Positions 9,835-62,614 of a stretch of 64,000 bases of DNA are shown one piece after another. Both the position numbers and the translations under genes were made by a program. Within the stretch, counting starts at the first letter, position 1. Each line of letters begins with the position of its first letter. Source of the DNA: a bacterium (GTDB lineage Bacteria > Patescibacteriota > Microgenomatia > Levybacterales > UBA12049); NCBI GenBank assembly GCA_021777565.1, contig JAJYDJ010000001.1, positions 88,431 through 152,430 of the forward strand, read 5' to 3'. The notes under the pieces were generated by a model. The model made no database searches. It saw only the letters and a program-made list of their open reading frames with translations, and was not told the DNA's origin.

Positions 9835-9870
9835 GCAGGGGCTAGTGGACTTTGTTAGAACTCATTTTAT
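9835..9870. repeat. Imperfect direct repeat, copy A (gcaggggctagtgGactTTgttAgaac...)
   Basis: About 80% identical over about 35 nt to 13885-13920. Sits in an intergenic 3'UTR region. Confidence 0.6.
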
Positions 9871-9899
9871 GAGTGGAATAGCATTTTACTCAGGACTCA

Positions 9900-10358: not shown

Positions 10359-10373
10359 ATAATGCACGTGACT

Positions 10374-14694: not shown

Positions 14695-14757
14695 GAGAAT
14701 AAAATAGCACTTTAATTAAACTCTGTATAGAAAGATGCCCTACGTAGTGTATCTCTA

Positions 14758-15468: not shown

Positions 15469-15564
15469 ATTTCGGCTTCATTGTAGCATAATTCTTCACA
15501 GAACAGTCCAAGTGTGTAAATAAAATATAGTCTTTCATAAATCGTAGTGCTACAATCACCTCAA

Positions 15565-18213: not shown

Positions 18214-18638
18214 ATGTTCACCTCCTTTCATATGCGCTGTATTGGCTGCAAATAAGTTATTGAGGGAACACAAAAAGCTCCCCCCAGCGATGGATTGCTC
18301 CACCTGCCGTAGTTTCCCACGACAACCTCAACAGCGCTCTGGAGAGAGCTTACTGCTGTTGAGGTTTTGCAACCATGCCTGTCAGAGTGACAAGTTTAGG
18401 TCGATAACTTGTACATGAATTGTACCATAAAGTGGAGTATACAGAAATGGACTTAGCCATAAATTTGAGTATTTTGATCAGACGGCACTTGTGCCGTCTG
18501 CACGATTAGCCACGAAAAAAAAATCATGCAACTGCCCTATAGTAAGCATCTTTGAAGCTAAGGGTAAAAAAAGTTAGTAAAGAAACTAATCCTCATATAT
18601 CTTTGTACTAGATCCAATAAATTCTTATTGGTGTGAAG

Positions 18639-19433: not shown

Positions 19434-20960
19434 ATGCTTCGCTATTTTATTTATTGTCGTAAGTCTTCTGAAGCGAGGGATCGGCAGGCACTCTCTATTG
19501 AAGCACAGAGAAGAGAGTTATCAGAATACGCCGAACGAAATAATTTGAAGGTTGTACAGATATTTGAAGAATCACAGTCTGCATATAAGTTAGGTCGTCC
19601 GATCTTCGATAAAATGATGAAAATGTGTGGGGAAGGATTGGCGAACGGAATACTCACTTGGAAGCCCGACAGACTCGCTAGAAACGCCCTAGACGGTGGT
19701 AAAGTCATTCAAGCACTAGATGATAAGGTTCTGCAAGAAATACGCACTCCATACGAAATATTTAAGCAAGAAGATAATCGTATGATGCTCTACGTGTTAT
19801 TTGGTATGTCCAATGACTTCTCACGACAAATTAGTGCAAATGTGAAGCGCGGGAATAGACAGAAGTATGTGAGAGGAGAATTCCTCGGAAAAGCTCCGGT
19901 AGGATATGTAAATGCTCAAATTGGTAACTCTCGTAATATCGTTCCAGACCCCGCAAAAGCCCCACTGGTAAGAAAACTGTTTGAGGAGTACTCGACAGGG
20001 AAATATTCAGTGATGCAAATTCTTACCATGGCACATGATCTCAATCTCACGTCTGTTTTTGGGAATAAATTTGTCAAAAGTGAGATGTATAGAGTCCTTA
20101 AATGTCCTGTCTATTACGGGGTATTTCAACATGGAGGAGAATTTCATAAAGGAAGCTATGAACCACTCATTTCTAAAGAATTATATAATAAAGTGCAAGA
20201 TGTTCTGGCAAATAGAAGTAAGCCGAAAAAACAAGATTGGATACATCCTTACATCGGCCTTATCAAATGTAAAAACTGTGGATGTGCGATCACTTGTACA
20301 ACAAAAGTGAAGCGATATAAACGCACAAATCGCACCGCTTCTTATACCTATTACCATTGTACAAAAAGAAGAGGCCCTTGTGACCAGTCAGCTGTTACCG
20401 AGAGTGAACTAGAGCGAATGCTTTATGAGCAAGTCGCTCAAATACATATTGATAAAGAGATTTGGGATTTAGGAGTGGAGTTATTAAAAGCAAAACATTC
20501 AAATGAATTTCAAGAGCATGAAAAACTAAAATTTAGTTTGACATTCGAAATTGAGAAGTTAGATAAGTGTTTAGAAAAACTTCTGACCATGCGTTTGAAT
20601 GAAGAGATTACGGCAAGTGAGTATGCAGATCAGAAGAAAGTGTTTATCGATAAAAGATTAGAGCTTCAGGAAAAAATGAATGACAGAGATCATTCAACCT
20701 CAAATTGGTTGGAACTCGCTGAAAACTTCTTTGAGACGGCATATCACGCACGAGAGGTCATGGAAAGTGATGATATGGATGCAAAGAGGGAATTAGTGCA
20801 AACTGTCGGTTGGAACCTCTTTTTAGACAATCAAAAACTCGAATTTAGCTTCAAAAAACCGTATGATGTACTACTCGTACCTGAAATAAAGGATAACGTG
20901 CAGGGGTGGAGGGAATCGAACCCCCAGTCGCGGTTTTGGAGACCGCTGGTTTACCGTTAA
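19434..20960 (+). CDS. Large serine recombinase (resolvase/invertase N-domain, recombinase domain, Zn-ribbon)
   Basis: 'YCRKSSEARDRQALSIEAQ' catalytic Ser region, 'DRLARN', Cys-rich 'CKNCGC...YYHC' zinc ribbon. The 3' end overlaps tRNA-Trp. Confidence 0.85.
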   Translation: MLRYFIYCRKSSEARDRQALSIEAQRRELSEYAERNNLKVVQIFEESQSAYKLGRPIFDKMMKMCGEGLANGILTWKPDRLARNALDGGKVIQALDDKVLQEIRTPYEIFKQEDNRMMLYVLFGMSNDFSRQISANVKRGNRQKYVRGEFLGKAPVGYVNAQIGNSRNIVPDPAKAPLVRKLFEEYSTGKYSVMQILTMAHDLNLTSVFGNKFVKSEMYRVLKCPVYYGVFQHGGEFHKGSYEPLISKELYNKVQDVLANRSKPKKQDWIHPYIGLIKCKNCGCAITCTTKVKRYKRTNRTASYTYYHCTKRRGPCDQSAVTESELERMLYEQVAQIHIDKEIWDLGVELLKAKHSNEFQEHEKLKFSLTFEIEKLDKCLEKLLTMRLNEEITASEYADQKKVFIDKRLELQEKMNDRDHSTSNWLELAENFFETAYHAREVMESDDMDAKRELVQTVGWNLFLDNQKLEFSFKKPYDVLLVPEIKDNVQGWRESNPQSRFWRPLVYR

Positions 20961-20972
20961 CCGACACCCCCG
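20902..20972 (-). tRNA. tRNA-Trp (anticodon CCA)
   Basis: Minus-strand cloverleaf: acceptor GGGGGTG/CACCCCT, anticodon stem GCGGT/ACCGC, loop CTCCAAA, T-loop TTCGATT; no encoded CCA. Confidence 0.8.
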
Positions 20973-20993
20973 TATTGATCGTATTTTAGCATA

Positions 20994-21015
20994 AAAAAAC
21001 CTCGCTGTGCGAGGT
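20994..21015 (-). terminator. Rho-independent terminator downstream of rpmG
   Basis: Minus strand reads CCTCGC-ACA-GCGAGG followed by TTTTTTTAT. Confidence 0.6.
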
Positions 21016-21040
21016 CGTGCGTGAGATATGATCTCTCAAA

Positions 21041-21220
21041 TTACTTCAGTTTTTCAACTTCTTTGTGCTCAGTAACCTTACGGCACTTACTGCAGAACTT
21101 GCTTAGCTTCAATTTGTCAGGTGTATTGACACGGTTTCTTTCCGTGACGTAATTACGATGCTTACACACCGTGCACACGAGGCCAATTTGGAAACGATTC
21201 TCACCTTTTTTCTTTGCCAT
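21041..21220 (-). CDS. rpmG: 50S ribosomal protein L33
   Basis: 'MAKKKGENRFQIGLVCTVCKHRNYVTERNRVNTPDKLKLSKFCSKCRKVTEHKE' is the L33 zinc-ribbon signature; TATAAT-N6-ATG. Confidence 0.9.
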   Translation of the reverse strand: MAKKKGENRFQIGLVCTVCKHRNYVTERNRVNTPDKLKLSKFCSKCRKVTEHKEVEKLK

Positions 21221-21246
21221 GACGATATTATATCGCAAATTTTGTC

Positions 21247-21276
21247 TTGTGGCTAGATGGGGGTTTTTGGTACAAT
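21247..21276 (+). promoter_or_regulatory. Sigma70-like promoter for the tRNA operon (TTGTGG-N18-TACAAT)
   Basis: The -10 ends 8 nt before the tRNA-Thr 5' end. Confidence 0.4.
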
Positions 21277-21284
21277 ACGAAGGT

Positions 21285-21359
21285 GCCGACATAGCTCAGC
21301 GGTAGAGCAGCTGTTTTGTAAACAGCAGGTCATCAGTCCGAATCTGATTGTCGGCTCCA
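21285..21359 (+). tRNA. tRNA-Thr (anticodon TGT)
   Basis: Acceptor GCCGACA/TGTCGGC, anticodon stem GCTGT/ACAGC, loop TTTGTAA, T-loop TCCGAAT, encoded CCA. Confidence 0.85.
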
Positions 21360-21385
21360 ATCTGTTATAATGTTCCATACGTAAT

Positions 21386-21473
21386 GCTGAGTTGGCGGAG
21401 CAGTCAATCGCACCTGACTGTAGATCAGGCGACCGGAAGGTCTACGGGAGTGCAAATCTCTCACTCAGCACCA
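21386..21473 (+). tRNA. tRNA-Tyr (anticodon GTA), class II with long variable arm
   Basis: Acceptor GCTGAGT/ACTCAGC, anticodon stem CCTGA/TCAGG, loop CTGTAGA, 16-nt variable arm, encoded ACCA. Confidence 0.85.
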
Positions 21474-21475
21474 AT

Positions 21476-21547
21476 GCCGATGTGGCTCAGTGGTAGAGCA
21501 TCTTCTTGGTAAGAAGAAGGTCATGGGTCCGATTCCCATCATCGGCT
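21476..21547 (+). tRNA. tRNA-Thr (anticodon GGT)
   Basis: Acceptor GCCGATG/CATCGGC, anticodon stem TCTTC/GAAGA, loop TTGGTAA, T-loop TCCGATT; CCA not encoded. Confidence 0.85.
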
Positions 21548-36053: not shown

Positions 36054-36590
36054 ATGTATAAAAGAAACGCAGGCCAGCTTCGCCACGAACCGGTGAACGA
36101 AGAAGAAAAAAGTAAATTAAAGAAAAATCCTATCTATATTATCTGTGATAACATCTTGGACACATATAATACTGGTTCAATTTTTCGCTTAGCAGATGCA
36201 GTTGCCGCGACAAAAGTATATTTGTGTGGGGTGACTGAAACACCACCAAATACGAGGATAAAAAAAGCATCAATAAATACAACCGAATGGGTAGACTGGG
36301 AATACTGTACAACAACCAAAGAAGCAATTGAAAAAGTGCGCCAGGAAGTCCTAGGGGTGCAAGTGGTAGTCATCGAGCAGGACGAGAAGAGTGTCCCATT
36401 TGATAAGGCAATGTATCAAACACCAGTGGCCTTTGTCGCGTGTAATGAAAGTACGGGTGCGACACCAGATGTTTTGGAAGCAGCAGATCTGATCGTTGAG
36501 ATGCCGATGTTTGGAGTTAATGTGTCGCTTAACGTAATGGTAAGTCTGGGGATAGTGCTCTATATGGCCGTGAGTAAATTGGAATTCTAA
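36054..36590 (+). CDS. SpoU/TrmH-family RNA 2'-O-methyltransferase (SPOUT)
   Basis: 'NTGSIFRLADAVAA', 'VIEQDEKSVP', 'NESTGATPDVL...VNVSLNVMVSLGIVLY'; TATACT-N6-ATG (ORF-track TTG at 36015). Confidence 0.75.
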   Translation: MYKRNAGQLRHEPVNEEEKSKLKKNPIYIICDNILDTYNTGSIFRLADAVAATKVYLCGVTETPPNTRIKKASINTTEWVDWEYCTTTKEAIEKVRQEVLGVQVVVIEQDEKSVPFDKAMYQTPVAFVACNESTGATPDVLEAADLIVEMPMFGVNVSLNVMVSLGIVLYMAVSKLEF

Positions 36591-37882
36591 TTCCCGAGTA
36601 GTGCAACAGTTCTTCTAGCTATAGCTGGTGCCGCATACATCTGCATGGTTCTTTCTCGAAGTGCCTGAGTATCAAGGGCAGGCTTGCCACTTGATAGGTA
36701 GTTGTGAATTCTTTGAGCTATATCAGCGTGGAGCACTATACTCGGGAGCACGAGTGCATTATAGTCGGTTGTTTCCATCATCGCGGGGTCTGTAGATATG
36801 GCCGCAGGGCATCCACAAAGGGCTGCTTCCAGTGGGGTCAGACTAAACCCTTCATTGGTAAACAACGCCAAAAGAAGATCAGAATGTTGAAAAAGCCATG
36901 GCATATAACTCCATTCAACCCCCCCTAAAAATAAGAGTGAACAGGTCTGAGGGTCAGTCTGATGGATAAGCTCTTGAATACGTTGCCAATAGAGTACATT
37001 CTCAGGTTTTCTCTCATCCGGCGTCCCAGTGACAATGAGTGCCACATGTCGTCCATACCGTTTCTGATATTCCTGGCAGACCGCTATGGCATGCTCGATC
37101 CCTTTTTGACCTACGATACGTGCGGGTACCACAATACGCAGCGCATCATGATCACCAAAAAGAATTTGTTCTGCCATCTGTTCAGTCTGTGGGAGCTGGT
37201 AGTGCGCGGTAAATTCGTGAAATGCTGGGGCTAACTCGGTAATAGTGTGTGGTGCCGGATGTACGGCTGCCAAGAATTGATCATCTATCGGATTACCAAT
37301 AACCTCAATGTGATAGTCAGGGACATGCGCCCCCTGGTCTCTCATCTTCTCTAGTTGGTCCACAAATTGTGCCCTTCGTGTTTCACTAATAAGTGCAATA
37401 CGGGTGCCATCAACGGTAGGGAGAAGGCGTTGGAGTTGCTCGGTACTGGCTCGTCTGGCATCATGGACCCAGAGCACCACTGGTTCGCCACCATCTCGTT
37501 CCCTTTGATCTGCCATTTCTGCCATGGCAACGCCAAAGGGAGGATTATGCCCGGCAGCATTGGTCGTATTATGGGCAATAACAGCTCCACCCCCAGAGAT
37601 ATCTTCAACTTGATCAACAATTCTGGCCACTGTTGCTGGGTCTACATCAGTTTGTCCAGCTGCCCAGGTTGGGTGGGCAGCACTACGAATATCGGGAACG
37701 ACGACGATGTCGTGGCTCTCTGGATCAGAATGGTCTGTTGCGCCAACAATTAATGTGGTGTGAATTCCTTCTGCTTGCAGCAGTTCCCGTTGGGTTGCAA
37801 TGACGCGCTCGACACCAGGAAGGGCACTGCCTGCTTGGTGGCCGTTGGATGAAAAGTGTGCGATAGATACTTCTTCTGTCAT
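36587..37882 (-). CDS. Glycosyltransferase family 4-like
   Basis: EX7E motif 'EGFSLTPLEAALCGCP'. Confidence 0.7.
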   Translation of the reverse strand: MTEEVSIAHFSSNGHQAGSALPGVERVIATQRELLQAEGIHTTLIVGATDHSDPESHDIVVVPDIRSAAHPTWAAGQTDVDPATVARIVDQVEDISGGGAVIAHNTTNAAGHNPPFGVAMAEMADQRERDGGEPVVLWVHDARRASTEQLQRLLPTVDGTRIALISETRRAQFVDQLEKMRDQGAHVPDYHIEVIGNPIDDQFLAAVHPAPHTITELAPAFHEFTAHYQLPQTEQMAEQILFGDHDALRIVVPARIVGQKGIEHAIAVCQEYQKRYGRHVALIVTGTPDERKPENVLYWQRIQELIHQTDPQTCSLLFLGGVEWSYMPWLFQHSDLLLALFTNEGFSLTPLEAALCGCPAAISTDPAMMETTDYNALVLPSIVLHADIAQRIHNYLSSGKPALDTQALRERTMQMYAAPAIARRTVALLGN

Positions 37883-37908
37883 ATATGAAAAATGTTTCTG
37901 ACGACTTG

Positions 37909-39258
37909 TCAGCGGATATACGAGGTTAGGTTGTGGGCAAGGAGTGTATCATCATGGTATTTCTTTGCCAGGGCATAATTGCGGGTGGCAAGGGCTTCTA
38001 AACTCACAGGGTCCTGTAAATGAGCAAGTGTGGCACGTGCTGCAAAAGTAAGCACCCGTTTTGGGACAAGGAAAAATTGATCTTTCTTTTCTACGGTGTG
38101 CCCGAGGGACACGTATTCATACCCTTCTGGCTGAATGTCACTTAAGAATACCGGATACTCAAAAAGTACGGTTAGTTTTTTGAAATAAAATGCTTCAAGG
38201 AGTTGGTTCCCAAACCCTTCCCAGATAGACGTATAGGTAACGATATCTGCAATCGGGTAACTATCCCAGAAGGAATACTCATTTTCTTTTGGTTTTCGAT
38301 CAACTGAAGTGAGGACATCGCTAGCCCACAGGATATTGACGTGAAGTCGTTTGGCAAGCATATCTAGTTGTGCTTGATAATCAGATTCGGCTGCTTCTAC
38401 AAAATTTGGGAGCACAAGCCATACCTTGTTTTTTGTGGTAAATGGACGAGCGAGGATATGTACTGGCATCTCTTCTCTGAGAACTTTCTCGAACTCACTG
38501 GTAAAATAGATCGCATTCTCAATTGCCTTGCGCCTGGCGATTCGAGTTGCATGTAAAATAACGACGTCATTAGGTCCGATACCGAGTTTTTTTCTTACTG
38601 CGGCCTCTCGTGTTGGATTTGGTTTATATGGTGTTTTGTAGTCAAAGTAGTCTGCGATACAGTGGGCACTGATAGAACGTCTTTTCAAAAGTTCTTTTTC
38701 TGCCAGTGAGTTTATGACTTCATGGGCTTTGATATACGGTCGTTTTGGAGGAAGTTCAGTCAGAATATTTTGTATAAATGGATATGGGGAGTGTGAGAAC
38801 CGCTCTCTCTCAAACCAAAAATCATGATGAAGGGCAACGACTGGGGTTTTGAGCTCATCTAAGGCCTTAATGACTGCCGTTGTGCCAGGGAGGTTATAGG
38901 CATGTGAGAAAAGATTATGGATAAAAATCAGGTCTGGTTTTTCTTTTTTGACTAACGCCAAAAACTTCTTATATATTTTTTCTTCAAGTTCACGATACCT
39001 CTGTACGAGGTCTTGTTCAGAGACTTTGCCATCGCCAAACATAATTTCACGAATATTGGTGATCTCCGGATTTTTCAAGTCCAGCTCAGGAATAATGCAG
39101 GTACTTTTTCTCTTTAATCCATCAACTCCGGCGCAGAGAACGACTTTGGTATTCAGCTTTTTGAACGTACGAGCTCGCTTCTCAATCTCGAGGCTAACTC
39201 CGTCCCGTTCACCGATGCGGTAGTGCACAATAAGGACCCTCTGAGAAGGTTTTTTCAT
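37909..39258 (-). CDS. Glycosyltransferase family 4-like
   Basis: 'EGFGNQLLEAF' EX7E-type motif; start at the ATG (MKKPSQ) at 39258. The ORF track extends to 39495. Confidence 0.7.
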   Translation of the reverse strand: MKKPSQRVLIVHYRIGERDGVSLEIEKRARTFKKLNTKVVLCAGVDGLKRKSTCIIPELDLKNPEITNIREIMFGDGKVSEQDLVQRYRELEEKIYKKFLALVKKEKPDLIFIHNLFSHAYNLPGTTAVIKALDELKTPVVALHHDFWFERERFSHSPYPFIQNILTELPPKRPYIKAHEVINSLAEKELLKRRSISAHCIADYFDYKTPYKPNPTREAAVRKKLGIGPNDVVILHATRIARRKAIENAIYFTSEFEKVLREEMPVHILARPFTTKNKVWLVLPNFVEAAESDYQAQLDMLAKRLHVNILWASDVLTSVDRKPKENEYSFWDSYPIADIVTYTSIWEGFGNQLLEAFYFKKLTVLFEYPVFLSDIQPEGYEYVSLGHTVEKKDQFFLVPKRVLTFAARATLAHLQDPVSLEALATRNYALAKKYHDDTLLAHNLTSYIR

Positions 39259-39370
39259 AGATACATTATACAAGAAATAAAACCCGTCGCATGACACTCG
39301 ACAGCGACAAATTCCTGACAATCTGACAAAATTGAAAAAGAAGCATGAAAAATCGTATAATATGGCTACC

Positions 39371-40663
39371 ATGGAAGACTTCATGCCTGAATTGAGATAT
39401 CCTCTCTCATTCCGAGAAGAAGACGCGGCAAAACTCGGGGAACTTCTCCAGCAGAATAAATCAGTAGAACTAATTGGTATGAAGCGAGTGGGCATCAGTA
39501 ACTTTCTTCAATTTTTTGTATTTCACAAAGGGATACAGGCAAAATATTTGGCTGAGCATACGCACCCATTATGTGTCTTGGTTGACCTGAACGATTTAGT
39601 CGAGCGTGAACTTTTTGCATTTTGGAGACTTCTGCTAAAACGTATTGTTGACGCCGCGGAGGATGAACCACACTTAGATAAAGAAGTTGTGAAGAGAATG
39701 CATACTATTTTCCTCGAGTGTATACAGACGGGGGATTCATTCATGACCTATGATGGGGTGAAAGAATGTATTACCCTTTTGGCTCAACAAAAAAGGTACA
39801 TAGTCCTTTTCTTTAATCGCTTTCACCGCCTACATGACTCAATGTCACTTGAATTTTTCCACAACTTATTAAGCTTGCAGAATGCATCACAAAAAAGACT
39901 TTCATTTGTTTTTACCAACTATAGACCACTCTCTTACATGCTTGGGGATATGTTTGTAAAAAACAACATTACCTTCCCGACGATCCTGACAGTAAAGCCT
40001 GCAAAGACAAAGGATATGCATGTTGTTCTCAAAAGTCTCGAAACGCAGTATCGTCTGGAGTTGGAACCACATATTCGTGAAGCTATTCTGACTCAGTCAG
40101 GTGGGCATATTTATTACCTCACGATTGCCTGTATTCTCTTGAAAGAACTCGAGGGCAAATCAGGTATTACTGCTGATCAAATCATAGAGCTTCTTCGACA
40201 GGACGAACGCGTGAAATCTCTCTCTGAAGAACTGTGGGAAAGCCTCTCTTCTAAAGAACAACAGGTATTTATGAAAATGCTTAAAAAAGAGTCGATCACA
40301 GCAAGCGACAAGCAAGCTGCAGCGTACTTGTGGGATATGGGATTTATTGTTGGTACCACCACCGTCTTTAGTCCATTATTCTCACATTTTGTCCTTTCGC
40401 AAAGAACTGTTGCGGAGGAAAATGATATGACCTTTACCAAAAAAGAAGCACTTCTTTTTGAGGCACTCAGAAAAAGAGTTTTTGAAGTATGTACCAGAGA
40501 GGAAATTATTGATGAAGTTTGGCCTGAATACAAGGCCTATGGTATTTCAGATTGGTCAATTGATAGGCTTATCTCGAGGGTCAGAGTAAAGCTAAAAAAA
40601 CAAAATAATCCGTATGAAATTTTGACTATTAGAACGCGTGGATATAGATTGGTAACCGTTTAA
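39371..40663 (+). CDS. ATPase-domain protein with C-terminal OmpR/PhoB-type winged-helix DNA-binding domain
   Basis: C-terminal 'LFEALRKRVFEVCTREEIIDEVWP...DRLISRVRVKLKK...RGYRLV' is a trans_reg_C signature; N-terminal P-loop-like 'GMKRVGIS'. Start uncertain (39332 TTG, 39362 or 39371 ATG). Confidence 0.55.
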   Translation: MEDFMPELRYPLSFREEDAAKLGELLQQNKSVELIGMKRVGISNFLQFFVFHKGIQAKYLAEHTHPLCVLVDLNDLVERELFAFWRLLLKRIVDAAEDEPHLDKEVVKRMHTIFLECIQTGDSFMTYDGVKECITLLAQQKRYIVLFFNRFHRLHDSMSLEFFHNLLSLQNASQKRLSFVFTNYRPLSYMLGDMFVKNNITFPTILTVKPAKTKDMHVVLKSLETQYRLELEPHIREAILTQSGGHIYYLTIACILLKELEGKSGITADQIIELLRQDERVKSLSEELWESLSSKEQQVFMKMLKKESITASDKQAAAYLWDMGFIVGTTTVFSPLFSHFVLSQRTVAEENDMTFTKKEALLFEALRKRVFEVCTREEIIDEVWPEYKAYGISDWSIDRLISRVRVKLKKQNNPYEILTIRTRGYRLVTV

Positions 40664-42324
40664 TTCCTCTGAGTAACTACGTAGTAAGGGTCTGATTTCA
40701 CATCATCCAACCAGTAAAAAATCTTCACCACGTGTGCATCCTTGAGATTAAGATCGCCAAGGTGAATACCACAATACACTGACAGTGATCCAGTCGGCAT
40801 CGTTTTGGTATCGATATATCCCGGGAACAAGGTAATCCCAGAAACAGTTCCTGTTGGGGGAACCATCTCGTCATACGCATCAAAGGGACTAATGCGATAA
40901 TTACTAAATCGTTCTGTTTTGAATGCATTATTCCAGGTGATCATATCTTTGCTTGGAAGGTTGGCAAAATACCACAGGTGCAGCGCGTCATTACCCCAAT
41001 TCTGGCAGGTGTGATCGTTGAGGAAATAAATTTTTTGTGATGGATTTTTTTGTAATTGTAAACGAATAAACTGTCCGAGTCGTGTCTGTGCAGGGGTAAA
41101 CTCTGCCACAGAAGTTGTTCTGAAATGTACAAAATAAATGTGAGCAAAAAGTCCCGCTTGATAGACAAAAAGCAGTGTCACACATCCCCAGAAGAAAGTT
41201 TGGAAAAGTAATTTCTGTTTGGCCATTCTCTCCATAATCCAAAGCACACCAAAACTAATAACAATCGGCAGTGAGATAGTCATGAGTGGCACGATGCGGG
41301 TTGCGTAAGGGGTTTGAGACGTCAGTGCTGAAGGGAAACCGGCAATCAGTGTAAACGTTACAAGAAACATCCAAGACCACTGTTTGATTGAAAAGTTTTT
41401 GATGACATACCAAAGTCCAACGAGATATGGCACAAAAAGAAATTGTAAAAATATGCCATTCTCTTTTGTCCCATGGCGATAGGCAAAGACAACGCCTTTA
41501 TCAAAAAGAAGTTCCAGATTCCAATTGCGAAGAAGTGAGGTTGAGATACTATTGATACGATCTGTAAGATACGCCCATCCTTTCAGGTCAGTATTCCCCA
41601 TAAGGTAACTTAACGGCCGGCTGTCAAGTTTGGCAAAAATCAGGGATGGAAGAAAGCTGATGACATTGGCAAGCATAAATCCGGCGAGTAACAACCAGAC
41701 CTGTTTTTTCTTTCTTTCACGGATAAACCAAATAGCCAGTAACAGAACAGTAAAAACTGGCAAGATGAAACGTGGCGCAGGATAGGTCCAGTTGGCGACA
41801 AAAAGTGCGGCAAGCCCGAGTGGGATCCAGAGTCTGAGTTTCACCTTGTTTAAAATTTGCCAGAGAGCGACGAGGTAGAGAAGAATAAAAAATGTTGCAA
41901 AGGTGGTCTCGTAGGCAATACGCGCAAAATGAATCGCGAAAAGACTCAGTGAGAGCATGCTCATGCTGATCCATGACAAGTCTTTCTTCTCAGGGAACAA
42001 CAAGCGCACAAAGTAACCAAGTAAAAAGATGGTGGCAATAGAAGCCAGAAGGGAGGGGAGGCGGATAGCCAAAAGGGTTGGACCCAGAAAACGATAGCTT
42101 AGCGCTGCTGCATAAATATATCCTGGAAGTTTATAATCTGTCGCGTCTTCAAAGACAAACGGGAAGGCTCTTCCATATTGGTCAGTCCCATTCTCAATGA
42201 GTGATTTGGCATCAACTGCCATGTTGATTTCATCAATAAAAAATCCACCAGGGAGAGAGTTGACCTGATAGAGCCTGAATGCAATACCGATACCAATAAG
42301 AATAATAAAAATTAACTTCTTCAT
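40660..42324 (-). CDS. GT-C fold membrane glycosyltransferase (GT39/GT83, PMT/ArnT-like)
   Basis: N-terminal 'YQVNSLPGGFFIDEINMAVDAKSL' DE motif in loop 1; 10 or more TM helices. Confidence 0.7.
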   Translation of the reverse strand: MKKLIFIILIGIGIAFRLYQVNSLPGGFFIDEINMAVDAKSLIENGTDQYGRAFPFVFEDATDYKLPGYIYAAALSYRFLGPTLLAIRLPSLLASIATIFLLGYFVRLLFPEKKDLSWISMSMLSLSLFAIHFARIAYETTFATFFILLYLVALWQILNKVKLRLWIPLGLAALFVANWTYPAPRFILPVFTVLLLAIWFIRERKKKQVWLLLAGFMLANVISFLPSLIFAKLDSRPLSYLMGNTDLKGWAYLTDRINSISTSLLRNWNLELLFDKGVVFAYRHGTKENGIFLQFLFVPYLVGLWYVIKNFSIKQWSWMFLVTFTLIAGFPSALTSQTPYATRIVPLMTISLPIVISFGVLWIMERMAKQKLLFQTFFWGCVTLLFVYQAGLFAHIYFVHFRTTSVAEFTPAQTRLGQFIRLQLQKNPSQKIYFLNDHTCQNWGNDALHLWYFANLPSKDMITWNNAFKTERFSNYRISPFDAYDEMVPPTGTVSGITLFPGYIDTKTMPTGSLSVYCGIHLGDLNLKDAHVVKIFYWLDDVKSDPYYVVTQRN

Positions 42325-43204: not shown

Positions 43205-46200
43205 TTATCCTAGATATGATGGACTTTTAATATCACGTAAATACGTGAGCAATTTGGAGAATGAAATAGTAGCAACTCCCACACGGGTATCTGCGGCGCC
43301 ATAGTAAATATACAGGGTATCGTCTTTCACGACTGCACCACACGGGAAGACAACGTTATTCACGATCCCTGAAATCTCATACTGCTGATCTGGTTCCATA
43401 ATAGGCCATGGCGTGCGAGAAAGGACAATTGATGGGTCTTTCAAATCCAGAAGCATCGCCCCAACACGGTAAATATGGCTTAATTTACTCACGCCATGAT
43501 AGAGAAGCAGCCACCCATCTGGTGTTTTGATAGGCGGAGCACTGACACCAATTTTTTCACTATCCCAAGAATCTCCACGTGGGGGGATATAGGCATGGGT
43601 ATGCATCCAGTGGGTGTCATCAATTTGAGTGAAATCCTCGACAAAGCTCAATGCGATAGAGTTTTGCAGTCTATGAATCACACAGAATCTTTCACCAAAT
43701 TTTTCTGGAAAAAGTGCGGCATCTTTGTCATCAATTCCTGGCGGAGATAACAGAATTGGATCAGCCCAGTTATATTCGCGAGCGTGAAAATTGTCGATAC
43801 TTATCGATGTGAGCGCGACGCGGGGAGGTTCAACACCATTGTAGGCAGTGTAGGTAAGGTATAAGGTCTTATCAACGATCGTTGCTCGTGGGTCTTCACA
43901 CCCTGAATTATTGCCAGGATTTTTCTTGCGCTCAAATTCGGCACGAGGTACATAAATTGGGATTTCGCCACGTTTACTAATAGTAAGTCCATCTTTGGTA
44001 TCAGCATGACCAAGCACAGAGGTATTGTCTGTCGACATTGCCCGATACAAAATATGCAGTTCCTTATCTCTCGCAGCAGTACAATCTTCTGGGCTGATAC
44101 AGATGACAGCTGGATTAAAGACTGCTTTCTCTTCCCATTGATGCTCAGGTATTGGTGATAACAGTGGAGTGTCATATTTTTTTACACGGATTGGGACAAC
44201 GGCATTGGTACGCATATGGGCATACACATCATCAATATCAAAAGTGGCTAGCGCGCAGTACTGATCCGCAGCACCATAGTAAACATATAGAAGTCCACTG
44301 ACTATTGCAGCACCTGTTGGGAAGACAACTCGTGGTGCAATACCATTAATCTCATACGTCGCCTCAGGAGTAAGAATAGGACTTTCTGTCCAGGCAATAA
44401 TATTGTATGGGTTGTTTAGATCAAGAAGGACTGCCTCCACACCTAGGATACGTTTATCGGGCCTATCATAATGTTGCATGTGGCTGTAAATAAAAAGCCA
44501 TCCTTTTTCTGTCTTGATCGGGACTGCGCCAACTTCTACCTGGTCTGAGGTCATACGTCTCACAGGAAGGATGTGTTTATCAAGCTCGCGATACCACTGA
44601 TTCCAGTACATCTCGTCCCACATGTCTTCTTTTTTGTCGAAAGTGGCAATACAAATTTGATCGGGCTTTGGTGGCACATCCGTGTCAACGGTCAAAAGAG
44701 CAACATACTTCCCATTAATTTTCTCTGATAAAAGTACCATGGCTTTGGCATTAAATGGCGTAATAAGATGTTTCTCAGGTTTTCCAGAAAGGTCAGTGAA
44801 GAGAGCAAGGCCAACTTTAATGTTATCCGGGCCATAGGGGAATCCACCCAGAGCCGTGTAGAAGACAAAATACTCATTATCCACTTTACAGATACGAGGG
44901 TCTTCACACCCATATCTGTCCCAATCCTCAGACGGGACAACAAGCTGTCGTCGACGAGTGAAGTGAATACCATCTTTGGTGTCAGCAATGCCAACGGTGC
45001 GCAGATTCAGTTTATGACCTTCATAGTCCTGCTCAGCACTGTCTGCACGGTAGACAAAGCGCACTGCATGAGGCTCAATGAGTATTGATCCATTCATTGT
45101 CCCTTGGGCTTCCCATGGATGCTCTGGATCAGGAGAAAGAATAGGATTTTGGGTACTTCGTGCTGCCTTTTTGGTATCAAAGAGTGACTGAATAATCGGG
45201 TGGCTCAATTTTGCTACTTCAGAATATTTCAGCTCAGAGAGGAACTGTTCGAGATTGGCTGTCGCGACACAGACATGCCAATCAGCGCCACCATAGTATA
45301 CGTATAACGTGTCGCCGATCACGACTGCTCCACAGGGATAGACGACGCCACCTTTAAAGCCTTCCCATTCATACCAGGCTTCTGGTTCAAGAATAGGTGC
45401 CTTACTTCTGGCAATCACTTTTGTAGGATCATCAAGGTCCAGAAGCATTGCCCCGACCAGATATCGTCCGGCTCCTTCTTGATCACACGTGCCATGATAA
45501 ATCAGAAGCCATCCATCTTTTGTTTTGATAGGAGGTGCACCAGCGGCAATTTTACGACTGTCCCACATATCAGGACGGGGAGAGATTTTAAATTCACCTT
45601 TAAGGAAATTATCCTTCCCATCAAATTCCAGACTGTCGACAAAGTCAATCAAAATGTCAGGGAAGATGCGGTGCATGACGACATATTTACCGTTTACTTT
45701 CTCTGGGAAAATAACGGCATTTTTATCAATGACCCCAGGAGGGGAGATGAGGACTGGCTTTTCCCAGAGCCAGCGTTTGTTAAGAAAATCTGCTGCTGCG
45801 ATAGAGGTGAGAGCGATACGAGGTTGGTCATAGCCGTTAAAGGCCACATAGGTCATGTAGAATCTATCACCAATGCGCGTAATGCGAGCGTCTTCGACAC
45901 CACCACAGCCACCGGCTGACATGTACTCTGTTACGACTTCTTCAGGCTTTATATATGGTGTGTACTCAAATGGCTCACTCGGACGATAGATTGGTTCTTC
46001 AAGTCTTTCATCAATATGGATACCGTCACTACTGGACGCATATCCCACTACTGATACCCAGTCATCTCCTTGTGCACGGTAGAGAATGTGAACTTTGCCA
46101 CTGTCATAGATTGCGGCGGGGTTAAAGGTGCCATGAGATTCCCAGGCGGTGGGCTGTGGCGCGATGAGCGGATTGGTTTCAGGACGTGCAAGATGCAAGG

Positions 46201-47050
46201 ACACGGAACTATCCTGCATGCCCGTCCCAACATGGTACACAGCATAGGCTACACTGAAGATCCCAAGTTGTGGCACATGCCAGTATGAGAGGATTGTATT
46301 TTCTACAAGGATAGTCCCCAGTGGATAGGCTTCCTGTTGCATCCAGTCCTCAGGGACTACCCAAATGGGCTCAGCACATCGCCAGAGGACATGCTGGGGA
46401 TTTTTAGGATCAAGAAGCGCAACGCCAACTCGATATTCTGATCCATTGTCTGTGTGGTAGAGAACCAGGATACCTTTTGGTGTGAGGAATGTGTTGGCGA
46501 TATGAATTTCTCGAGTGTCAAAATACCCCTCTCGAGGCTCAAGAACAGTTCCTTGATTGGCCCAGGTGATGAGATCTGAGGAAGTATAGATATCTATCGT
46601 TTTTTCTCCACCAAGTAGAATAGATTGCCTTTTGTAGGTATAGTCAGTAACGATGACTCCACTCGTCTCTGCCTGTATCATCGGTCCTTCCAGTGTCCAG
46701 TGATACAGATCTTTGGACCATGCTTTGCATAATTTCGTCTTTCCTTTTTCATCGACCCTAGTGTAGAGAAGAAGAAAGTGTTGTCCGTACTCAGAAATAG
46801 TAAAGTTGTAGATGTGTGAAAGATTCTCATACGTATGTGGCGCTGTCTCAATAGAAAATGTTCTTGGATCGGCTTGGAAAGAATACCCATCGTCACTGGT
46901 CGCGATATGAAACGTCTCATTGGTGTCTTGTGAGGATTGGAAGTAGAGATAGGCAGTACCAGGAGTTGCGAAGATACCAAGACCCCTCAGATGTGGGTCT
47001 CTTTTGAGTGTCCCAATTAGTACTTTATTCACCACCGTTGAATCGCCCAT
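43205..47050 (-). CDS. Multidomain beta-propeller protein with three tandem GH130-like (glycoside phosphorylase) modules and an N-terminal propeller domain
   Basis: Repeated 'EDARITRIGDRFYMTY', 'EDPRICKVDNEYFVFY', 'EDPRATIVDKTLYLTY' and 'PIKT(K/E/P)DGWLLIYHG' motifs; 1281 aa; no signal peptide. Confidence 0.65.
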   Translation of the reverse strand: MGDSTVVNKVLIGTLKRDPHLRGLGIFATPGTAYLYFQSSQDTNETFHIATSDDGYSFQADPRTFSIETAPHTYENLSHIYNFTISEYGQHFLLLYTRVDEKGKTKLCKAWSKDLYHWTLEGPMIQAETSGVIVTDYTYKRQSILLGGEKTIDIYTSSDLITWANQGTVLEPREGYFDTREIHIANTFLTPKGILVLYHTDNGSEYRVGVALLDPKNPQHVLWRCAEPIWVVPEDWMQQEAYPLGTILVENTILSYWHVPQLGIFSVAYAVYHVGTGMQDSSVSLHLARPETNPLIAPQPTAWESHGTFNPAAIYDSGKVHILYRAQGDDWVSVVGYASSSDGIHIDERLEEPIYRPSEPFEYTPYIKPEEVVTEYMSAGGCGGVEDARITRIGDRFYMTYVAFNGYDQPRIALTSIAAADFLNKRWLWEKPVLISPPGVIDKNAVIFPEKVNGKYVVMHRIFPDILIDFVDSLEFDGKDNFLKGEFKISPRPDMWDSRKIAAGAPPIKTKDGWLLIYHGTCDQEGAGRYLVGAMLLDLDDPTKVIARSKAPILEPEAWYEWEGFKGGVVYPCGAVVIGDTLYVYYGGADWHVCVATANLEQFLSELKYSEVAKLSHPIIQSLFDTKKAARSTQNPILSPDPEHPWEAQGTMNGSILIEPHAVRFVYRADSAEQDYEGHKLNLRTVGIADTKDGIHFTRRRQLVVPSEDWDRYGCEDPRICKVDNEYFVFYTALGGFPYGPDNIKVGLALFTDLSGKPEKHLITPFNAKAMVLLSEKINGKYVALLTVDTDVPPKPDQICIATFDKKEDMWDEMYWNQWYRELDKHILPVRRMTSDQVEVGAVPIKTEKGWLFIYSHMQHYDRPDKRILGVEAVLLDLNNPYNIIAWTESPILTPEATYEINGIAPRVVFPTGAAIVSGLLYVYYGAADQYCALATFDIDDVYAHMRTNAVVPIRVKKYDTPLLSPIPEHQWEEKAVFNPAVICISPEDCTAARDKELHILYRAMSTDNTSVLGHADTKDGLTISKRGEIPIYVPRAEFERKKNPGNNSGCEDPRATIVDKTLYLTYTAYNGVEPPRVALTSISIDNFHAREYNWADPILLSPPGIDDKDAALFPEKFGERFCVIHRLQNSIALSFVEDFTQIDDTHWMHTHAYIPPRGDSWDSEKIGVSAPPIKTPDGWLLLYHGVSKLSHIYRVGAMLLDLKDPSIVLSRTPWPIMEPDQQYEISGIVNNVVFPCGAVVKDDTLYIYYGAADTRVGVATISFSKLLTYLRDIKSPSYLG

Positions 47051-47219
47051 ATATGCTCGCTTTCAGGAAGTAGTAACTTTATAGTAACATATTTCACCCC
47101 CCTTATTTAGTTCTGGTATCGAAAACTGACATATCCCTGAAATTCTTGATTTTATGATACGTAATTTTATATTGAATTGACGTGACACACCTCACTCATC
47201 TTTGGTACAATGGGATACC

Positions 47220-48404
47220 ATGCTGAAGGGAAATAAAACTCTATTTATTGTCGCACTTATCGCTATCGTCAATGCGTTAGGCTACGGGATTATCATCCCG
47301 ATTTTGTATACGTATTCTCAGCGTTTTGGGTTAACCGTGTTTCAAAATGGTCTTTTGTTTACAACCTTTTCTTTGTGTCAATTTGTCTCAGCGCCATTTA
47401 TCGGTAGATTGTCAGATAAATATGGACGACGCCCGACATTGACTGTTTCTATTGCTGGTACGGCTTTGTCGTTCTTTACCATGGCATTTGCGCCAAGTAT
47501 TTTTTATCTTTTTCTCGCCCGTATTATTGATGGTGTGACAGCAGGGAATTTCCCAGTACTTTCTGCAGTCATCTCAGATACGCTGGAGCCTAAAGACCGG
47601 GCGAAGGGATTTGGGGTGGTCGGAGCAGCTTTCGGATTTGGATTCGTTTTTGGCCCTGCTATCTCTGCATTAACTTTTGGCATTAACCCCGCGCTGCCAT
47701 TTCTGATCTCAGGCATTATTACTGTGATTGCCACCATCATGACCTGGATGCTATTACCAGAAACGAACAAACACATGGGACAGGTAGAGCATAAACACAT
47801 GTTTGATTTTTCAGGTCTGTATCATGCACTCTTTGACCACAATGTAAATTTGCTTTTGATTATTGGTCTGGTGTACTCACTGGTATTCTCAGCCTACATT
47901 ACAATCTTTCAGCCATATGCCAATAACGTATTGCATTACACAGGTACCCAGCTGTCTCTTTTCTTCACGGGTATCGGTGTAATTGGTATTATCACGCAGG
48001 TTGCACTGATTGGACGATTTACCAAATGGTTTGGTCCACGACTTTTGTACTCGCTCTCACTTTTCTCAAGCATTTTAGTTTTTCTTGGGATGTATGCCTC
48101 TGGTCGTGGGGTGATCTTTGTACTCTTCGGACTTTTGTTTGCTCTAGTAAATTCATTTATCAGTCCATTAACCCAGACTCTTTTGTCCAATGAAACAGAT
48201 GATAAGTCCCAGGGGTCAATGCAGGGGATTAGTGCATCGTATGCAAGTATTGGCCAAATCATTGGGCCAATTATCGGCGGATTTATGGCATCACTTTCTC
48301 TGTCAGTGCCGTTCTTGGGCATTGCAGGGTTAGCACTTCTTTGTTTTCTCATATCACTTGGCATTCACAAGCCAAAAGTACGCGTCCATGCATTTGAAAA
48401 ATAA
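47220..48404 (+). CDS. MFS transporter
   Basis: 'GRLSDKYGRRP' MFS loop 2-3 motif; 12 TM helices; TACAAT-N9-ATG (ORF-track TTG at 47202). Confidence 0.8.
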   Translation: MLKGNKTLFIVALIAIVNALGYGIIIPILYTYSQRFGLTVFQNGLLFTTFSLCQFVSAPFIGRLSDKYGRRPTLTVSIAGTALSFFTMAFAPSIFYLFLARIIDGVTAGNFPVLSAVISDTLEPKDRAKGFGVVGAAFGFGFVFGPAISALTFGINPALPFLISGIITVIATIMTWMLLPETNKHMGQVEHKHMFDFSGLYHALFDHNVNLLLIIGLVYSLVFSAYITIFQPYANNVLHYTGTQLSLFFTGIGVIGIITQVALIGRFTKWFGPRLLYSLSLFSSILVFLGMYASGRGVIFVLFGLLFALVNSFISPLTQTLLSNETDDKSQGSMQGISASYASIGQIIGPIIGGFMASLSLSVPFLGIAGLALLCFLISLGIHKPKVRVHAFEK

Positions 48405-55088: not shown

Positions 55089-56732
55089 ATGTCAAAAAAA
55101 TTTATTTATATTTCACTTTTCCTCATAGTTCTTTTTGGTGGATTTATCAGGTTTTATCATCTCGGGACGCTGCCCAGCGGATTTCATTTTGATGAGGCAT
55201 CACTGGGATACAATGCCTATAGTCTTTTACTGACTGGTAAAGATGAATACGGCGTGAAGTATCCATTGGTGTTGCAGTCTTTTGGAGATTATAAACCAGC
55301 TCTCTATGCCTATATGGATATTCCACTGGTCAAGATGTGGGGACTGACTATTTTTGCAACTCGTTTCCCATCAGCACTCTTTGGAACGTTAAGTATTCTC
55401 ATCATGTTCTTTCTGGCAAGACAGATTACTCAAAAGGATAAAGATGCACTGCTGGCAAGTTTGCTTCTGGCGATAACACCATGGCATATTTTTATCTCAC
55501 GCACTGCGACGGAAGCGACGGTCGCACTCTTTTTCTTAATGAGCATCTTTGCACTCGCTCTGTATATGCATGCGCAAAAAAACATAAAATACTGGGCGAT
55601 AGCACTGGTGGTTCTGTGTTCTGGCATTGCGATACTAACCTATGCAGGTGCACGCCTCTTTGTCCCGATGCTTCTTGTCCTGGCATTCTTTCTGCCAAGA
55701 GCAAAAAAAGCATTCTACATCTCACTGGTCTCTGCCTTTGTCATCGTCGTGCTGGGTATCCTTTGGTATAACAAAAGTGCTTCCATCACACGATTTGACC
55801 AGGTAAGTATTTTTACCAAAGAAGATACTCAGGCGGCCATGAGTCTGCAAATTCGAGAAGAGGGAAGTGTCTCTCCACTCATTACGCGTATCTTTCATAA
55901 CAAGTTAGTGAACTATACCCGTGTCTTCCTCTATGACTATGACCAGTATATGAGTTTGGATTTCCTTGCACTGCATGGGGGGTATCCACCACGTATTCAT
56001 ATCGCTGATCTGGGAGAATTTTATTTATGGGAGATACCGTTCCTGTTGATTGGTGTCTACATGGTCTTCAGACAGAAAAAAACAATCTGGTTTGTTATTC
56101 TGGCATGGTGGCTGATCCTTCTGGCACCCGCAGCCTCAACCTCTGACGCGATCCCGAATGTGTATCGTGCCAGTCCTGTCATCCCGGCAATCGTACTTCT
56201 GATTACCTATGGCATTTCGCAGTTTCGTCTAGGGAAATATAACAAACTTCTTTTTGCTGCGATCATTCTCGCAGGGATTTTTGAGTTCGGGTATGGTGTC
56301 AATCAATACAGTGTGCATGGAGAAGTACACCAGCCATGGTACCAGGGATATACCTATAAAGAGCTAGATAGTATCCTGCACACCTATGATGGCCAACCGT
56401 ATGCACACTATCTGATCACGAAATACAACTCGACACCCTACATCTATCTCTTGTTCTATGACAAATATAATCCTGCGCTCTATCAGAGTCAGGGATCACC
56501 TCGCGATCTGCTCAATTTCTCATCCTTTGGCAGATACATGTTCACTGAAGAGTCATGTCCATCAACACTCAGTACTGAGCAGCTCAAACATGGGGTGACG
56601 TCTACCAATACGGTTTTTGTGGATGCCGGAATTTGTGATGAGAGTGGGAACAACAGTGGCCTTACTAAGACAACAAGGCTGATTAGATGGCAGGATGGCT
56701 CCGAATCTTTCTACGTGGTAACCTACAAGTAA
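55089..56732 (+). CDS. GT-C fold membrane glycosyltransferase (GT39/GT83-like)
   Basis: 'YHLGTLPSGFHFDEASLGYNAYSLL' first-loop DE motif; paralog of 40660-42324. Confidence 0.7.
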   Translation: MSKKFIYISLFLIVLFGGFIRFYHLGTLPSGFHFDEASLGYNAYSLLLTGKDEYGVKYPLVLQSFGDYKPALYAYMDIPLVKMWGLTIFATRFPSALFGTLSILIMFFLARQITQKDKDALLASLLLAITPWHIFISRTATEATVALFFLMSIFALALYMHAQKNIKYWAIALVVLCSGIAILTYAGARLFVPMLLVLAFFLPRAKKAFYISLVSAFVIVVLGILWYNKSASITRFDQVSIFTKEDTQAAMSLQIREEGSVSPLITRIFHNKLVNYTRVFLYDYDQYMSLDFLALHGGYPPRIHIADLGEFYLWEIPFLLIGVYMVFRQKKTIWFVILAWWLILLAPAASTSDAIPNVYRASPVIPAIVLLITYGISQFRLGKYNKLLFAAIILAGIFEFGYGVNQYSVHGEVHQPWYQGYTYKELDSILHTYDGQPYAHYLITKYNSTPYIYLLFYDKYNPALYQSQGSPRDLLNFSSFGRYMFTEESCPSTLSTEQLKHGVTSTNTVFVDAGICDESGNNSGLTKTTRLIRWQDGSESFYVVTYK

Positions 56733-61549: not shown

Positions 61550-62614
61550 CTATGCCTGGAGAAGATATCCTTTGCCTTTGGCAACTTTAATAGTTGCACT
61601 TGGTTCTAGCTTAACTAACTTTTTCTTCATACGATACATCAATTGGCTGATGGCCCATTCTGAATACTTAATCTCCCAATCATCTTCTCCCCAAATTGCT
61701 TTTGCGATATCGTTTTTGGAGACAATTTTACCTGTCTGTTGGCACAGTAAATCGTAGACTCTCTCTTCAAGGAACGAAAAGTCTCTCTTATTTGCATGGA
61801 TCATACGATACATGTCACTTAGAAGAGGATTAAAAAATTTGTCTCCTTGGAGGAGGCCGATCTGGCGCAGCTGTGTCTTCTCAGTGTTGGTAAGTTGTCC
61901 GTGTACAACCTTATCAATAATCTCTGCGGGGAAATCTTTTAAAATGGAAGAAAGCTTATATACCATTGAAGGTTGTGCCAGGAGGAATGTTGAGGTGAAA
62001 CGGGCATCTGGATTCTCCAAACGCAGGAGCGTAAGTGCTTTGACCAACCCTGCATGACCACAACTAAGTTCAAAAATTTCTTTCTTCTCGTCTTCACTCA
62101 AGTTGCTTTTAATCTTATTTGTATGTTCCGCAATGATTTGTTTTGCGTCGTTGTAATTTACTAAATGAAGCATTGTAAGATATTGCATAAGGGCTTTGGA
62201 TGTTACATTGAAGGCACTGTATACTTCTTTTGTTCCAGAGAAAAGGTAAAATATGAATCCTTCCTGATGCTTATAACGTAAGTTATCTAGTGCATCCACA
62301 AGCCAGGATGCATCTTCTGTCAGAAAAATGTTGATACAAGCAATCACAGGCGTATCTTGCTTCTGGAGGATAGCGATGAACTCTCTCAGTTCTTCTACAG
62401 AGATGGTGTTACAGACGAAGAGTTCGTATTCCTTAGGACGATTGCTCTCAAGATACTGCACGACCGCAGTAAACAAATGATCTTTCCCAACGCCAGCCAT
62501 ACCTATAAACGTGGCTGGTTCATGGAGAAGTACCTTTTGCTTAACATTCTTAAGCAGCTTTTTGTCGCGATCCACAATGGCTCCTGGAAGGCGTGGGATT
62601 GCATATGGTGGCAT
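61550..62614 (-). CDS. P-loop ATPase with C-terminal OmpR/PhoB-type winged-helix domain (paralog of 39371-40663)
   Basis: Walker A 'GMAGVGKD'; C-terminal 'DIAKAIWGEDDWEIKYSEWAISQLMYRMKKKL...KGKGYLL'. Confidence 0.55.
   Translation of the reverse strand: MPPYAIPRLPGAIVDRDKKLLKNVKQKVLLHEPATFIGMAGVGKDHLFTAVVQYLESNRPKEYELFVCNTISVEELREFIAILQKQDTPVIACINIFLTEDASWLVDALDNLRYKHQEGFIFYLFSGTKEVYSAFNVTSKALMQYLTMLHLVNYNDAKQIIAEHTNKIKSNLSEDEKKEIFELSCGHAGLVKALTLLRLENPDARFTSTFLLAQPSMVYKLSSILKDFPAEIIDKVVHGQLTNTEKTQLRQIGLLQGDKFFNPLLSDMYRMIHANKRDFSFLEERVYDLLCQQTGKIVSKNDIAKAIWGEDDWEIKYSEWAISQLMYRMKKKLVKLEPSATIKVAKGKGYLLQA

Follow-up and report, generated by a model that had tools for sequence, protein, structure and literature searches.

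Enzymes of glycoside hydrolase family 130 (GH130) are known almost wholly from single-module proteins of gut and thermophilic bacteria. Here we describe a protein of 1281 residues with four GH130-derived modules, termed N, A, B and C from the N-terminus, which is encoded in a 64,000-nucleotide stretch (the window; positions 88,431 to 152,430 of contig JAJYDJ010000001.1, assembly GCA_021777565.1) from a member of the Levybacterales, within the Patescibacteria. In both sequence and fold, modules A, B and C are matched best by Teth514_1788 and Teth514_1789 of Thermoanaerobacter sp. X-514 (GH130_6; PDB 9FJ8 and 7FIP), a 1,2-β-oligomannan phosphorylase and a β-1,2-mannobiose phosphorylase respectively. 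They are cytoplasmic, as the window protein probably is, they work side by side as two paralogues, and their catalytic, phosphate-binding and β-1,2 specificity residues are identical to those of A and C. However, they are single-module proteins of ~300 residues from separate genes, their identity to our modules is ~38–40%, and they have neither a partner without a phosphate site nor a degenerate module. A second point of reference is provided by the GH130_3 β-1,2-mannosidases BT3780 and BACOVA_03624 (PDB 5A7V and 3QC2). The BT3780-type enzymes of gut Bacteroides are encoded in loci for the breakdown of yeast mannan, and signal peptides occur in part of their group (PMC7660257, PMC4599007), whereas module B is internal to a cytoplasmic protein.

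Tandem GH130 proteins have been recorded before: six of the 1592 GH130 sequences in CAZy were multi-modular in 2018, and four two-module GH130-GH130 sequences were among the entries described (PMC7660257). In those both modules fall into one similarity cluster, while the four modules of the window protein fall into four clades with differing active sites. The Leishmania mannogen mannosyltransferase/phosphorylases MTP1-7 (family GT108) resemble our protein in their five-bladed propeller and, on the function predicted for it, in mechanism, in acting on β-1,2-mannan and in being cytosolic, and they too form a paralogue family split into phosphate-using and non-phosphate-using members (PMC10913872, PMC12814180). 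Unlike the window protein they are separate single-module proteins; no sequence match to them was seen, and the 50 Foldseek matches listed include no structure from GT108. For GH130 in the Patescibacteria (Candidate Phyla Radiation), the searchable literature gave only one gene count, in a paper on a Microgenomates genome that lists two GH130 genes as cytoplasmic (PMC7143001). Thus the family, its general chemistry and tandem GH130-GH130 proteins were known already (PMC7660257), while we found no description in the searchable literature of the patescibacterial N/A/B/C system, the B-type active site or the complete four-module fusion.

The protein is encoded by one uninterrupted open reading frame (ORF) with an ATG start on the minus strand, as in the original prediction, which had been made from the sequence before this analysis. 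Its parts are as follows.

43205..47050 (stop codon included), minus strand: whole ORF, four-module N-A-B-C GH130 protein, Pfam PF04041 total 509.7 bits
46196..47050, minus strand: module N, residues 1–285, degenerate GH130-like propeller, predicted inactive
45176..46195, minus strand: module A, residues 286–625, canonical GH130 phosphorylase-type
45173..45178, minus strand: fusion junction, Asp625 (GAT) / Thr626 (ACC), from codon comparison with locus L009 and the C-termini of L007 and L008
44195..45175, minus strand: module B, residues 626–952, GH130 variant without a phosphate site
43208..44194, minus strand: module C, residues 953–1281, canonical GH130 phosphorylase-type

No hydrophobic signal-like stretch was seen on inspection of the N-terminus, in agreement with the prediction that there is no signal peptide, and a cytoplasmic location is probable. 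Scans for promoters and terminators near the ORF gave background levels only.

In relatives the two halves of this protein are separate. Proteins of ~620 residues with the N-A arrangement are very common, forming more than 100 clusters at 45–57% identity, and where their sources are named these are Levy-, Woese- or Daviesbacteria or 'Patescibacteria group bacterium'. B-C proteins of ~640 residues are equally common. A-B-C three-module proteins, by contrast, are rare: among 178 collected proteins four have three modules, and one, the window protein, has four. No second four-module protein was seen when the whole protein, module B or N-A served as the query, and a scan of the contigs of species-representative genomes for the complete sequence gave no close relative. 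A scan with the B-C alignment of one genome per species matched at least 582 genomes, and the counts that follow rest on the best 80 of these, which come mostly from named Patescibacteria lineages, with a few from Omnitrophota and Chloroflexi; several MAGs labelled Saccharibacteria are also among the carriers of a B-C gene. All 80 loci have a B-C ORF that shares the active-site signatures, and directly upstream of it lies an A-type gene (A or N-A) in ~75, with an N-type module in front in roughly 40% of those. None of the 80 loci fuses the two genes. The view that a triple fusion of GH130 modules is unusual therefore stands for CAZy, on the 2018 figures above, but needs amending for the Patescibacteria, where the same four modules are standard as two adjacent di-module genes and it is the fusion alone that is rare.

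The point of fusion can be placed to the codon. In L009, a locus of Candidatus Levyibacteriota, the N-A gene ends ...AKLTEPVFKQIF-TAA and the next codon starts B-C, as ATG-ITITRSEKNPILKP. At the corresponding place the window protein reads ...AKLSHPIIQSLF-GAT(Asp625)-ACC(Thr626)-KKAARSTQNPILSP, which is collinear with L009 codon for codon. On this comparison, the 1281-residue protein is a codon-exact, in-frame fusion of adjacent N-A and B-C genes. That the halves are separate genes in relatives, with a stop codon exactly at the junction, is also what one would expect of an artefact, whether a mis-assembled concatenation (the original prediction had named this as one way in which it might fail) or a stop codon erased by sequencing error. 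We consider an artefact of either kind extremely improbable. Five independently assembled contigs, drawn from ENA and from Logan and up to 953 kb long, carry the identical 1281-residue protein; pairwise protein identity among the modules is 26–43%; and DNA repeats at the module spacing are short and of no more than 84% identity, except for one 22-nt match at 91%, so that there are no long repeats able to mislead an assembler. Together these three observations exclude mis-assembly. Sequencing error is unlikely because the stop and the start codon must each have changed by two bases, TAA differing from GAT, and ATG from ACC, at two positions.

Two observations on the collected B-C genes may be recorded here. 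Proteins P0005 to P0021, of ~1060 residues, are B-C proteins with a conserved C-terminal domain of ~420 residues (for example residues ~640–1060 of P0006; another case is at 8001–11180 of locus L004); the one member with a source name comes from Chloroflexota metagenome-assembled genomes (MAGs). This domain has no Pfam match, no similarity to GH130 or to module N, and no copy in the window. In addition, many B-C genes (L007, L010, L014, L019 and others) lie on Patescibacteria-like contigs titled 'uncultured Gammaproteobacteria' or 'Pseudomonadales', from binchicken/SRP co-assemblies, and the titles of those MAGs are probably unreliable.

All three of the repeats on which the original prediction was founded are full GH130 modules. 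Scanned singly against PF04041 (Glyco_hydro_130), modules A, B and C score 178.5, 129.4 and 177.5 bits (E 2.1e-52, 1.9e-37 and 4.2e-52), all in excess of the gathering score of 26 bits and far beyond chance, and in each case the match spans nearly the whole profile. The acidic motifs noted earlier are present at residues 386 (EDARI), 716 (EDPRI) and 1052 (EDPRA), and PIKT occurs at 507, 844 and 1173; the longer strand PIKT.DGWLLIYHG, which had been described as conserved, is exact in A and near-exact in C (PIKTPDGWLLLYHG), but has diverged in B (PIKTEKGWLFIYSH). Nor are the modules three repeats of a kind. In a neighbour-joining tree N, A, B and C of the window protein occupy four separate clades, N adjoining the BT3780-type hydrolases and A and C adjoining Teth514_1788 and Teth514_1789; among characterised relatives A and C are closest to GH130_6, while B and N form clades of their own. 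By sequence, the four modules are ancient GH130 paralogues in distinct clades, of which only A and C have the phosphorylase site. A recent internal triplication is ruled out by this clade structure and the low identity between modules.

To assign residue roles we aligned the modules with solved GH130 proteins, taking positions from PMC7660257 and PMC4599007: the proton donor is Asp104 in UhgbMP and Asp142 in BT3780, and the phosphate ligands are Arg168 and His231 of UhgbMP. A phosphorylase is recognised by Arg, His and Tyr contacting O1/phosphate, without a catalytic base. Li et al. (2020) proposed a rule that reads mechanism and linkage from three features: the Asp that donates the proton, the Arg/His pair for phosphate, and, as the mark of β-1,2 linkage, a Glu/Lys pair made up of a Glu preceding the catalytic Asp and a Lys at the position of UhgbMP Arg150; the rule is itself a prediction from sequence, not an assay (PMC7660257).

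The proton donor is present in three modules, as Asp387 (A), Asp717 (B) and Asp1053 (C), and so is the β-1,2 pair, as Glu386/Lys443, Glu716/Lys769 and Glu1052/Lys1109. The phosphate ligands, on the other hand, are complete in A (Arg461/His519/Tyr530) and C (Arg1127/His1185/Tyr1194) only. With Arg325 and Asp590 in A, and Arg1003 and Asp1254 in C, these two modules have the full set R-E-D-K-H-R-H-Y-D. Module A finds 9fj8 (E 3.4e-59) and 7fip (E 1.1e-56) as its top PDB matches, and module C matches NF052550, the NCBIfam equivalog model for β-1,2-mannobiose phosphorylase, with E 3.2e-70. We predict that A and C are β-1,2-mannoside phosphorylases.

Module B keeps the sugar-binding and acid residues (Arg668, Glu716, Asp717 as the acid, Lys769 and Asp929), but its phosphate ligands are replaced, Arg by Thr787, His by Ser856 and Tyr by Leu869, so that R-E-D-K is followed by Leu-Thr, Ser and Leu where A and C have their ligands. 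It has also gained three acidic residues, Asp791, Glu839 and Glu872. Glu839, a Gly to Glu change, aligns with the column of BT3780 Glu268, one of two candidate catalytic bases in GH130 hydrolases (PMC4599007). B is thus like BT3780 and BACOVA_03624 in keeping the Glu-Asp pair and the β-1,2 Lys, in lacking the phosphate Arg/His and in having a Glu at the Glu268 column, but it differs in having Val at the Glu227 column, in its own conserved Glu872 and Asp791, and in belonging to a separate clade. It differs as well from the non-phosphorolytic MTPs, which transfer mannose from GDP-mannose (GDP-Man) and have a His in their phosphate pocket but no Glu substitution. Across the 80 species the column of Glu839 is Glu in 100% and that of Glu872, the second Gly to Glu change, is Glu in 96%; the phosphate Tyr is replaced by Phe in 99%, and an inserted Thr-Asp, which includes Asp791, is present in 99–100%. 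Because these substitutions are specific and invariant across the 80 species, we take them to represent a changed function and not decay. Compared by alignment, the B-type active site is different from that of known GH130 hydrolases. The structure model of B also has a helical insert, specific to this module, at residues ~807–826.

The fourth, N-terminal module had been described as a divergent propeller-like domain. It is present, and on the sequence comparisons that follow it is GH130-derived and catalytically degenerate, belonging to no other propeller family. In Pfam it falls short of the PF04041 gathering score and its sole hit is to GH32N, exactly at the 22.1-bit cut-off, with GH43 below cut-off, whereas it matches NF052550 with E 5.6e-20 and, in phmmer searches of the PDB, the GH130 crystal structures 7fip (E 6e-15) and 3taw (E 2.5e-13). 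GH32 or GH43 identity, which had been put forward as an outcome that would undo the prediction, is ruled out for N, the matches being clan-level, at or below threshold, and many orders weaker than those to GH130; and A to C, as shown above, match PF04041. In place of the Glu-Asp pair N has Tyr81-Asn82, the catalytic Asp having become Asn82; the Arg and Lys of the +1 subsite are lost, while Glu149 and His199 are kept. The two columns of BT3780 Glu227 and Glu268 are occupied in N by Glu149 and His183 respectively, and the phosphorylase ligand set Arg/His/Tyr is absent. Among N-type modules of relatives the former catalytic column is Asp in 29/55 and Asn in 11/55, and none has the +1 subsite residues. 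The catalytic columns of N-type modules thus drift, in contrast to the strongly conserved signature of B.

AlphaFold2 (AF2) models built with family alignments are all-β, with strands in blade-like groups, and fold all four modules confidently: N-A reaches a predicted local distance difference test (pLDDT) score of 91.5 and a predicted template modelling (pTM) score of 0.87, and B-C a pLDDT of 89.5 and a pTM of 0.62. Across residues 21–270 of module N the pLDDT is ~95. Foldseek gave template modelling scores of 0.86–0.87 to 7fip and 9fj8, in a search that aligns the best-matching module only; the models and these matches show the five-bladed β-propeller fold of GH130. The high pTM of N-A suggests that the packing of N on A is fixed. 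GH130 enzymes are usually dimeric or larger (PMC12814180), and N may be a built-in partner for A, replacing the other subunit of such a dimer.

Genes recurring beside these modules in relatives point to mannose metabolism. A 115-residue cupin with the mannose-6-phosphate isomerase (PMI) domain PF01050 is found in 22 loci and a haloacid dehalogenase (HAD)-type phosphomannomutase (PMM) of the PF03332 type in 17, one or both being present in 27/84. In L005 the order is cupin PMI, N-A gene, B-C gene; the phosphomannomutase neighbour in L006 is a PGM/PMM-family protein. P0002 is flanked by a cupin gene and P0022 by both cupin and phosphomannomutase genes, and P0008 is a B-C protein fused to a cupin. 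Together PMI and PMM connect mannose-1-phosphate (Man-1-P), the product of a mannoside phosphorylase, to fructose-6-phosphate (Fru-6-P). No transporter or glycosyltransferase, including GT-C and GT4 enzymes, recurs among the neighbours in the 84 related loci.

Our preferred interpretation, which we hold with rather more belief than doubt, is that the window protein is a cytoplasmic, multi-catalytic β-1,2-mannoside enzyme born from the fusion of an N-A and a B-C gene. Modules A and C would act as inverting β-1,2-mannoside phosphorylases in which Asp387 and Asp1053 donate the proton, and phosphate held by Arg461/His519/Tyr530 in A, or Arg1127/His1185/Tyr1194 in C, attacks C1, the reaction being (Man)n + Pi <-> α-Man-1-P + (Man)n-1. 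The two may differ in chain-length preference, as Teth514_1788 and Teth514_1789 do. Module B would bind the same β-1,2-mannosyl unit but be unable to hold phosphate; its carboxylates Glu839, Glu872 and Asp791 would most likely activate water, making it a hydrolase of the β-1,2-mannosidase kind, the alternative being that they serve in non-phosphorolytic transfer or in binding. Module N would be inactive and packed on A, in the role that a further subunit has in ordinary GH130 dimers. Man-1-P would enter glycolysis through phosphomannomutase and then mannose-6-phosphate isomerase.

A number of observations weigh against this interpretation. NF052550 has a single-domain cut-off of 450 bits, which no module reaches, N scoring 71.9, A 239.5, B 173.4 and C 236.8; at 173–240 bits for modules A to C, the identity of the substrate would follow from a few specificity residues. 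The whole protein does score 700.8 bits, but it passes 450 bits only by summing four modules, and for this reason the automatic name 'β-1,2-mannobiose phosphorylase' is unjustified. The phosphate site of A-type modules differs by lineage. In N-A relatives the His of the phosphate pair is Gln in 33/55 and Tyr in 9/55, and A-only genes often have Ser, Asn, Ala or Gly for the phosphate Arg, so that the A clade is not uniformly one of classical phosphorylases; a shift of donor or nucleophile may have occurred within it, although module A of the window protein retains both Arg and His. Module B has no Glu at the Glu227 column of known hydrolases, and could act as a binding module only. Finally, searches by tblastn and then with family hidden Markov models found neither a cupin isomerase nor a phosphomannomutase in the 64-kb window.

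If the general chemistry is accepted, the question becomes what the enzyme works on. One answer is that the four modules both form and draw on a reserve of β-1,2-mannan in the cytosol, comparable to Leishmania mannogen, in place of degrading an imported glycan; the phosphorylase-type modules would run backwards from Man-1-P, or weakly from GDP-Man, and PMI and PMM would carry Fru-6-P into the polymer and out again. We regard this as possible but on balance doubtful. PMI and PMM are the conserved neighbours while no transporter recurs, no module has a signal peptide, and hundreds of species whose genomes are very small have retained the system. The mannogen enzymes of GT108 share fold and mechanism with GH130 and are of bacterial origin (PMC10913872), and β-1,2 GH130 phosphorylases, Teth514_1788 and Teth514_1789 included, do show GDP-Man transferase activity, though it is weak, orders of magnitude below phosphorolysis (PMC12814180). 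The frequent loss of the A-type Arg to Ser, Asn, Ala or Gly recalls an Arg/His split once proposed to divide phosphorylase-active from transferase-only GT108 enzymes, but this position does not by itself set GT108 activity (PMC10913872), and the window's own module A departs from the pattern in keeping both residues. We found no report of β-1,2-mannan in Patescibacteria in the searchable literature. Extending the storage proposal to a β-1,2-mannan system across the Patescibacteria, in which N/A/B/C GH130 modules, the cupin PMI and PMM maintain a mannogen-like reserve or rheostat, B represents a new non-phosphorolytic catalytic class of GH130 with a carboxylate set of its own, and the window protein is the whole machine in one chain, its fusion indicating that the modules operate as a single physical assembly, gives a picture that is attractive but, in our estimation, speculative.

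The original prediction offered two other explanations. The GT-C-like (PMT_2-like) and GT4 genes that share the window led to the suggestion that the protein processes the mannosylated glycans which these enzymes make. Taken as trimming or recycling of surface glycans, this is a role that we consider unlikely, given that it has no signal peptide or membrane segment while GT-C enzymes work outside the membrane. PMT-type enzymes, moreover, form α-mannosyl and not β-1,2 linkages, and neither GT-C nor GT4 genes recur in the related loci, so that the suggested link finds no support in conserved context, where the cupin PMI and phosphomannomutase are the recurrent partners. The remaining suggestion was of a scaffold with degenerate modules, or, put more broadly, a mostly non-catalytic or decaying fusion with one working module and pseudo-enzymes for the rest. 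Some modules are indeed degenerate or altered, N being without the catalytic Asp and the +1 residues and B without the phosphate site, but a pure scaffold role fits N only: A, B and C retain all of their sugar-binding and acid residues, the specific and invariant substitutions in B imply selection for a defined function, and all four modules are folded confidently by AF2. We consider it very unlikely.

Patescibacteria have some of the smallest free-standing bacterial genomes, yet they hold up to four distinct GH130 paralogues, often beside enzymes tying mannose-1-phosphate to glycolysis. If our preferred interpretation of a multi-catalytic β-1,2-mannoside enzyme is right, β-1,2-mannoside metabolism would be a core trait of the group and not an accessory one, and would offer a lead on storage or on the use of host-derived material. 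Module B offers a clean case from nature of a phosphorylase fold altered at its phosphate site, and is useful for understanding how phosphorylase, hydrolase and transferase activities are exchanged, or for engineering such changes. In the classic 'Rosetta stone' sense the fusion is evidence of cooperation between the N-A and B-C proteins, and it allows the whole set to be expressed from a single construct. Annotation pipelines may mislabel such proteins, since the sum of four modules exceeds an equivalog cut-off that lies above the score of each one alone.

Neighbours of the ORF in the window are listed below; the remaining neighbours are unrelated housekeeping genes.

47202-48404: divergent major facilitator superfamily (MFS) transporter next to the ORF, considered as a possible functional partner but not a recurrent neighbour in the 84 loci
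40660-42324 and 55089-56732: GT-C-like (PMT_2-like) genes
36587-39495: GT4 genes

Elsewhere in the window, the proteins encoded at 39332-40663 (plus strand) and 61550-62614 (minus strand) match Pfam only in a C-terminal OmpR-type winged-helix domain (Trans_reg_C), their long N-terminal regions having no Pfam match and no receiver domain. A nucleotidyltransferase domain of the SMODS type known from CBASS-type defence systems (PF18144, E 1e-26) is encoded by the ORF at 15547-16449 (plus strand), and the ORFs beside it at 13948-15468 have a weak DUF5677 match or none in Pfam. A LOOT RNA motif (Rfam RF03000) lies at 18289-18402 (minus strand), scoring 82.6 bits against a gathering score of 46.4. 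An ORF for a large serine recombinase (Resolvase, Recombinase and Zn ribbon domains) at 19434-20960 (plus strand) ends inside or beside a cluster of four tRNA genes at 20901-21547, and the region 19434-21547 may mark the boundary of an integrated element.

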